Positions 34,341 through 34,514 of a DNA stretch of 64,000 nt are shown piece after piece (position 1 is the stretch's first letter; every line of letters starts with the position of its first letter). The DNA is from Escherichia coli. GTDB taxonomy: Bacteria > Pseudomonadota > Gammaproteobacteria > Enterobacterales > Enterobacteriaceae. Location of the stretch: NCBI RefSeq assembly GCF_050920415.1, contig NZ_CP169309.1. One strand, written 5' to 3'. Made by a program: the position numbers and the translations under genes. The notes below the pieces were generated by a model. That model ran no database searches. It was not told the DNA's origin and saw only the letters and a list, made by a program, of their open reading frames with translations.

Positions 34341-34390
34341 AAAACGACTCCTCGTAGAGAACAATCTGGATTCAGTAAATTGCGCGAGAA

Positions 34391-34406
34391 GATAAAACGT
34401 TTTATC
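34391..34406. promoter_or_regulatory. MalI operator 1 (GATAAAACGTTTTATC) in malI-malX divergent region
   Basis: Perfect 16-bp palindrome; a second near-identical copy lies 78 bp away. Confidence 0.8.
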
Positions 34407-34468
34407 AAATTTTAGTGAGGCACAAATCACATTACGCAACGATAATAGCGGGTATAAGATAAATAAAA

Positions 34469-34484
34469 GGTAAAACGTTTTATC
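34469..34484. promoter_or_regulatory. MalI operator 2 (GGTAAAACGTTTTATC)
   Basis: Near-perfect copy of the same palindrome, proximal to the malI start. Confidence 0.8.
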
Positions 34485-34514
34485 TGTCACATAATCAGGG
34501 AGTAGGTCATCTGC

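Follow-up and report, generated by a model that had tools for sequence, protein, structure and literature searches.

We identified two nearly identical 16-bp palindromes in the intergenic spacer between malX and malI of Escherichia coli, and we hold with high confidence that MalI, the repressor encoded next to them, has its two operators here, between the divergent malXY and malI; this operator pair has been published and is already known. The window, that is, the whole stretch of E. coli DNA analyzed here, comprises 64 kb, and the gene order around the spacer is add-malY-malX on one side and malI-hdhA-uidR-uidA on the other. The spacer measures 174 bp (34341-34514) and is the exact gap between the ATG of malX (34340, minus strand) and the ATG of malI (34515, plus strand). 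A query region of 374 bp (34241-34614) was 100% identical to NZ_CP169399, and the order malY, malX, malI, hdhA, uidR, uidA is also that of the RefSeq annotation of the strain identical over this region. The genes next to the spacer and their translation signals were the following.

31566-32738, minus strand: malY, 390 aa, second gene of the malXY operon (ORF and RefSeq annotation; PatB-family C-S lyase, TIGR04350)
32748-34340, minus strand: malX, 530 aa, PTS maltose/glucose IICB with the start MTAKTAPK (RefSeq CDS of 1593 nt; NF007509)
34515-35543, plus strand: malI, 342 aa, repressor of the LacI/GalR family (ORF, RefSeq, and NF007449)
34348-34353, minus strand: Shine-Dalgarno sequence of malX, GAGGAG, 7 nt upstream of the ATG (from sequence; the block ACGACTCCT is conserved in 21 Enterobacteriaceae spacers)
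34498-34506, plus strand: purine-rich ribosome-binding region of malI, GGGAGTAGG (from sequence; GGGAG is conserved in the 21-spacer alignment)

Gene identities were assigned with NCBIfam models. MalI scored 664 bits against NF007449 (cut-off 310) with residues 1-340 covered, and profile positions 1-530 of NF007509 aligned to residues 1-530 of MalX. MalI had the composition of a LacI/GalR member, with an N-terminal helix-turn-helix and a periplasmic-binding-protein-like sugar domain in addition to the match to the MalI model, and its homologues among solved structures were LacI, CcpA, and RbsR. The 90%-identity cluster of the 530-aa MalX also included 390-aa MalY/PatB proteins from Salmonella, which looks like a clustering artefact, perhaps formed via a bridging fused or mis-called sequence.

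The two palindromes, to which no strand applies, were located as follows.

34391-34406: O_X, the MalI operator at the malX promoter, GATAAAACGTTTTATC, a perfect 16-bp palindrome (repeat and pattern search; published MalI DNA site)
34469-34484: O_I, the MalI operator at the malI promoter, GGTAAAACGTTTTATC, with one mismatch to O_X (repeat and pattern search; cross-genus conservation)

O_I matched O_X at 15 of 16 positions and retained palindromic pairing at 7 of 8. The sites were 78 bp apart from start to start, with 62 bp between them, and the original prediction, which described two almost identical 16-bp palindromes 78 bp apart between divergent starts, was confirmed in its coordinates and its details. 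When the whole 64-kb window was searched with GATAAAACGTTTTATC, no sequences other than O_X and O_I matched with at most 1 mismatch. Allowing up to 3 mismatches, 4 matches were observed, compared with a mean of 0.25 in 100 dinucleotide shuffles of the window, and none of the shuffles (0/100) reached 4. The 2 three-mismatch matches elsewhere in the window, at 50621-50636 and 55339-55354, are probably due to chance. The exact 16-mer and its one-mismatch variant both lie between the divergent malI and malXY, as MalI operators should.

O_X was identical, letter for letter, to the MalI DNA site of PMC5543585, which describes a fluorescent reporter-operator system built from MalI (the "MalO" array) and whose supplementary oligos D71689 and D71690 label GATAAAACGTTTTATC as "MalI DNA site." In that study, arrays of 20 copies of the site recruited MalI::mCherry and produced foci in vivo, and the authors, referring to Lloyd et al. 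(2008, 2010), state that each of the two promoters carries a 16-bp target to which MalI binds, with repression (PMC5543585). Identity to the published site, together with the NCBIfam gene identities, bore out the proposal that the palindromes serve as MalI operators for malXY and malI. What was computed here covers the sequences and their gene context, the identity to the published site, how rarely such matches arise by chance, and the finding that the sites are conserved but the upstream malX extension is not; MalI binding and repression are taken from the literature. No difference of substance was found from the MalI operators of E. coli K-12 (Lloyd et al. 2008, FEMS Microbiol Lett 288:250; Lloyd, Godfrey and Busby 2010, FEMS Microbiol Lett 305:28), with the same locus and sequences and an identical O_X.

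Palindromes of this kind might instead act as hairpins in the transcripts, or as sites of another regulator whose likeness to MalI sites is coincidental, and we regard such a reading as extremely improbable. Each palindrome can form a small hairpin, and O_I would fall in the transcribed malI leader. However, the operator hairpins were weak (-3.0 and -3.6 kcal/mol), the leader folded no better than shuffled sequence (z-scores -0.53 and +0.33), and Rfam gave no match anywhere in the 64-kb window; an RNA-level role was rejected on these 3 grounds. O_X would further lie upstream of the presumed malX transcript start and would be untranscribed in that direction. Against both the hairpin and the other-regulator versions, the exact O_X sequence recruits MalI in vivo (PMC5543585).

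With the palindromes read as MalI operators, we infer the exact promoter positions around them from short motifs and their conservation, and the spacer was annotated with the following elements.

34389-34394, minus strand: probable malX -10 hexamer, TATCTT, overlapping O_X (AAGATA invariant in 21/21 aligned spacers)
34416-34431, no strand: CRP-like site, TGAGGCACAAATCACA, agreeing with 8 of 10 consensus positions, centered at 34423.5 and common to both promoters (consensus scan)
34441-34446, plus strand: GATAAT block, between the CRP-like site and the malI -10, conserved in most of the aligned Enterobacteriaceae spacers
34453-34458, plus strand: probable malI -10 hexamer, TATAAG (TATAA invariant in the 21 aligned spacers)

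In E. coli K-12, malI and malX reportedly share a single CRP site, at -41.5 of malX and -43.5 of malI, and the MalI targets are said to lie at -24 to -9 of malX and +3 to +18 of malI. Setting the CRP center at 34423.5, the transcript starts would presumably be 34382 (minus strand, malX) and 34467 (plus strand, malI). The reported positions then map onto 34416-34431, 34391-34406, and 34469-34484 with zero residual, which is a matter of arithmetic consistency only and not independent evidence. The position of TATCTT fits a malX transcript start near 34382, where Lloyd 2008 reportedly places it, and the invariance of AAGATA across the 21 spacers extends to 2 bases outside O_X.

The CRP-like site was the only such sequence in the spacer and the single conserved one in the alignment, where TTTAGTG-G...ATCACAT was conserved across genera. 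Matches of this quality to the CRP consensus TGTGA-N6-TCACA numbered 20 in the window versus 27 expected, and TGAGGCACAAATCACA is not significant alone; it was kept as a candidate because it is conserved and because malI and malX are listed as CRP targets (PMC3105977). The same source describes malI-malXY as regulated by different CRP molecules; Lloyd 2010 reportedly describes one site used in common. A generic scan of the spacer for sigma-70 promoters and terminators found nothing, a result that is uninformative for activator (CRP)-dependent promoters. The spacer differed from that of a K-12-like O16:H48 strain at 1 base in 174 bp, position 34423, within the 6-bp spacer of the CRP-like site. 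The window carries C at this position and 4 other sampled E. coli spacers, including the K-12-like one, carry T, which is the only window-specific difference from those 4 spacers.

Within the species, the query region 34241-34614 was found in 5413 of 5426 complete E. coli genomes, leaving 13 without it. Of the 5413 genomes with the region, 5372 had the 30-mer containing O_X (34389-34418) and 5075 that containing O_I (34462-34491), in both cases always once per genome. Roughly 340 genomes hold the region without the exact O_I 30-mer, and variation in or beside O_I affected about 300 more genomes than variation in or beside O_X. In 1 E. coli record, the malX-malI spacer was located on a plasmid and not on the chromosome, and in NZ_CP069459 the match to the query region was limited to the 32% on the malX side.

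We scanned across species, with 1 genome per species, for the pattern TAAAACGTTTTA-N(51-81)-TAAAACGTTTTA and obtained at least 120 loci. This set was selected on both exact 12-bp cores, so that conservation of the cores is partly by construction and the set says nothing of the fraction of malI loci without them. At least 87 species-level genomes (87 of the 120 loci listed) had the paired cores in the divergent malI/malXY layout. They spanned Enterobacterales and Vibrionaceae, and MalI identity among these listed loci fell as low as about 41%. The genera among the matches listed included Escherichia, Citrobacter, Salmonella arizonae, Klebsiella, Raoultella, Enterobacter, Lelliottia, Kluyvera, Cedecea, Atlantibacter, Pluralibacter, Serratia, Morganella, Photobacterium, Vibrio, and Thaumasiovibrio. 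Among the same matches, the operators of the E. coli clade, Serratia, and Atlantibacter lay 78 bp apart and those of most other Enterobacterales 79 bp, with a single exception of 77 bp in 1 Enterobacterales MAG (L112); in Vibrionaceae the distance was 81 bp in Thaumasiovibrio and about 90-93 bp in Photobacterium and Vibrio.

Although the spacing stays at 78-79 bp, the sequence between the operators diverges across Enterobacterales. The outer operator positions, which were left free in the search, varied between GA, GG, and AG at one end and between ATC, ACC, AGC, and ACT at the opposite end. Aligning 21 Enterobacteriaceae spacers, we found conservation confined to a few blocks, namely the malX ribosome-binding site, AAGATAAAACGTTTTAYC (O_X plus 2 flanking bases), the CRP-like site, GATAAT, GTATAA, O_I, and the malI GGGAG.

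The malX reading frame remains open for 68 codons upstream of the ATG and runs through both operators, as the original prediction had also pointed out; the minus-strand ORF 32748-34544 is 598 aa long and equals the 530-aa MalX plus these codons.

34341-34544, minus strand: in-frame open extension of 68 codons upstream of the malX ATG, non-coding (ORF 32748-34544)

Both operators read DKTFYLL in the malX frame. They fall in the same frame because 78 = 26 x 3, and the open frame exists partly because the 78-bp spacing puts both operators in a stop-free frame. The 68-codon open frame is a product of chance and is non-coding. The contrary view, that MalX starts 68 codons earlier in this lineage or that the operators lie within the gene of a separate small protein, could appeal to the uninterrupted frame with its ATG at 34544 and to the few database entries that start upstream of MTAKTAPK, but we give it next to no credence. 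In S. arizonae and many Citrobacter, a stop stands directly before the ATG and leaves an extension of 0 codons; elsewhere its length is erratic, mostly below 40 codons. The MalX family profile NF007509 begins at MTAKTAPK, the conserved GAGGAG stands 7 nt before that ATG, and the ATG at 34544 falls within the malI gene, which is on the other strand, and precedes the malX promoter.

The exact 598-aa product was absent from a collection of 15 billion proteins, and at least 1000 contigs carried the exact 530-aa MalX. A search with the 68-aa extension recovered only 10 small clusters of 38-108 aa; where a cluster contained MalX sequence (P0016, P0017, and P0022), it held short fragments or frameshifted copies of malX that begin upstream, as in E. 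coli TA143, and the remainder were short unrelated calls over the same DNA. The earlier warning that automated callers may misplace the malX start therefore held for fragments and frameshifted copies but not for the sampled RefSeq genomes. The annotation check suggested along with that warning returned the short form in all 5 E. coli genomes sampled (5/5), each with malX of 1593 nt and the MTAKTAPK start. Over-extended malX starts are a realistic risk only for fragments and pseudogenes of the locus.

In the mechanism that we propose, each 16-bp palindrome would be bound by 1 MalI dimer, MalI being probably dimeric, as we infer from its sequence. In the malX promoter, O_X coincides in part with the probable -10 and the spacer region, and MalI bound there would exclude RNA polymerase. 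In the direction of malI transcription, O_I comes directly after the conserved TATAAG and the presumed transcript start; MalI bound to O_I would block initiation or escape, so that malI would be autoregulated. A single CRP site (center 34423.5) between the promoters, common to both, would set the geometry of the region, and the spacing of 78-79 bp would be tightly conserved because both promoters are anchored to this one site. The 2 operators would act independently, without a DNA loop.

Two near-identical sites at a conserved distance might also be expected if the operators cooperate, with 1 MalI oligomer bridging both and looping the 62-bp spacer in the style of lac O1/O3 or gal OE/OI and with each promoter needing both sites. 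Paired operators are common in the LacI/GalR family, which counts for looping, yet we consider it very unlikely at this locus. The center-to-center distance of 78-79 bp corresponds to about 7.4-7.5 helical turns (10.5 bp per turn) and therefore places the operators on opposite faces of the DNA and not on the same face. MalI aligned to LacI residues 2-325 of 360 only, ending there, and covered positions 3-327 of a 358-position LacI-family model; it ends where the LacI core ends and therefore has no tetramerisation segment with which to bridge 2 sites. A shared CRP anchor is also the simpler account of the conserved spacing. Finally, Lloyd 2010 reportedly found each operator dispensable for repression of the other promoter, with the 2 operators acting independently.

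Among the closest known designs, the gal OE/OI operators with GalR and the lac O1/O2/O3 operators with LacI involve the same repressor family. Their operators, too, are palindromic, some 16 bp long and centered on CG, and gal and lac have more than 1 operator per control region, as here. However, gal and lac repress via a DNA loop (through the LacI tetramer, or GalR with HU), whereas the MalI sites are out of helical phase, with one per promoter. The locus also resembles divergent class II CRP-dependent promoter pairs, likewise having a single CRP-like site (34416-34431) midway between the promoters.

A different arrangement was observed in Vibrionaceae. In 8 Photobacterium loci (L014, L044, L067, L068, L091, L092, L106, and L117), the MalI sites were 92-93 bp apart, and in Thaumasiovibrio (L056) they were 81 bp apart; in all of these, O_I lay 133-161 bp from the malI start, and in Photobacterium O_X was only 37-53 bp from the malX start. 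For the Vibrionaceae pairs spaced about 90-93 bp, the distance from O_I to malI was 133-145 bp. Judging from this layout, with both sites near malX, the wiring in this family may differ from that of E. coli and might be cooperative.

The 12-bp core also occurred outside malI loci, with about 33 of the 120 loci listed with paired TAAAACGTTTTA being non-malXY. In Clostridia, Chloroflexi, and Bacteroidota, pairs spaced 65-92 bp apart adjoined unrelated genes of the LacI family. These include the following 4 loci, from Clostridium, a Chloroflexi MAG, and Pedobacter, where the cores were 65-90 bp apart.

L109, 3319-3403: paired TAAAACGTTTTA by a LacI-family regulator gene
L074, 11246-11323: paired TAAAACGTTTTA by a LacI-family regulator gene
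L079, 1715-1791: paired TAAAACGTTTTA by a LacI-family regulator gene
L027, 4563-4664: paired TAAAACGTTTTA by a LacI-family regulator gene

Neighboring genes at these 4 loci were unrelated to malXY and included a GNAT acetyltransferase, a DUF4870 protein, and a SusC-like TonB receptor. It is conceivable, though we think it doubtful, that TAAAACGTTTTA pairs are not specific to MalI and represent an ancient arrangement of two operators that one LacI subfamily has reused repeatedly, alongside a different, possibly cooperative, wiring in Vibrionaceae. At another locus (L095, 1304-1512), from a Prevotellaceae MAG and not a malI locus, we observed 10 tandem copies of a 21-bp unit, TAAAACGTTTTAAAACGAAAA, with 96% matches.

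More than 15 years ago, genetic mapping in E. coli K-12 reportedly established the operators and the shared CRP site and showed that the operators act independently. The assignment made here thus has little discovery value, and the MalI site is already in use as a laboratory tool. For annotation, 34341-34514 should be treated as regulatory DNA, with the malX start at MTAKTAPK (34340). As a comparative footnote, it is mildly new that the two-operator layout is kept in both Enterobacterales and Vibrionaceae, that TAAAACGTTTTA pairs also accompany unrelated LacI-family genes in other bacteria, and that the spacing of 78-79 bp is maintained throughout Enterobacterales.
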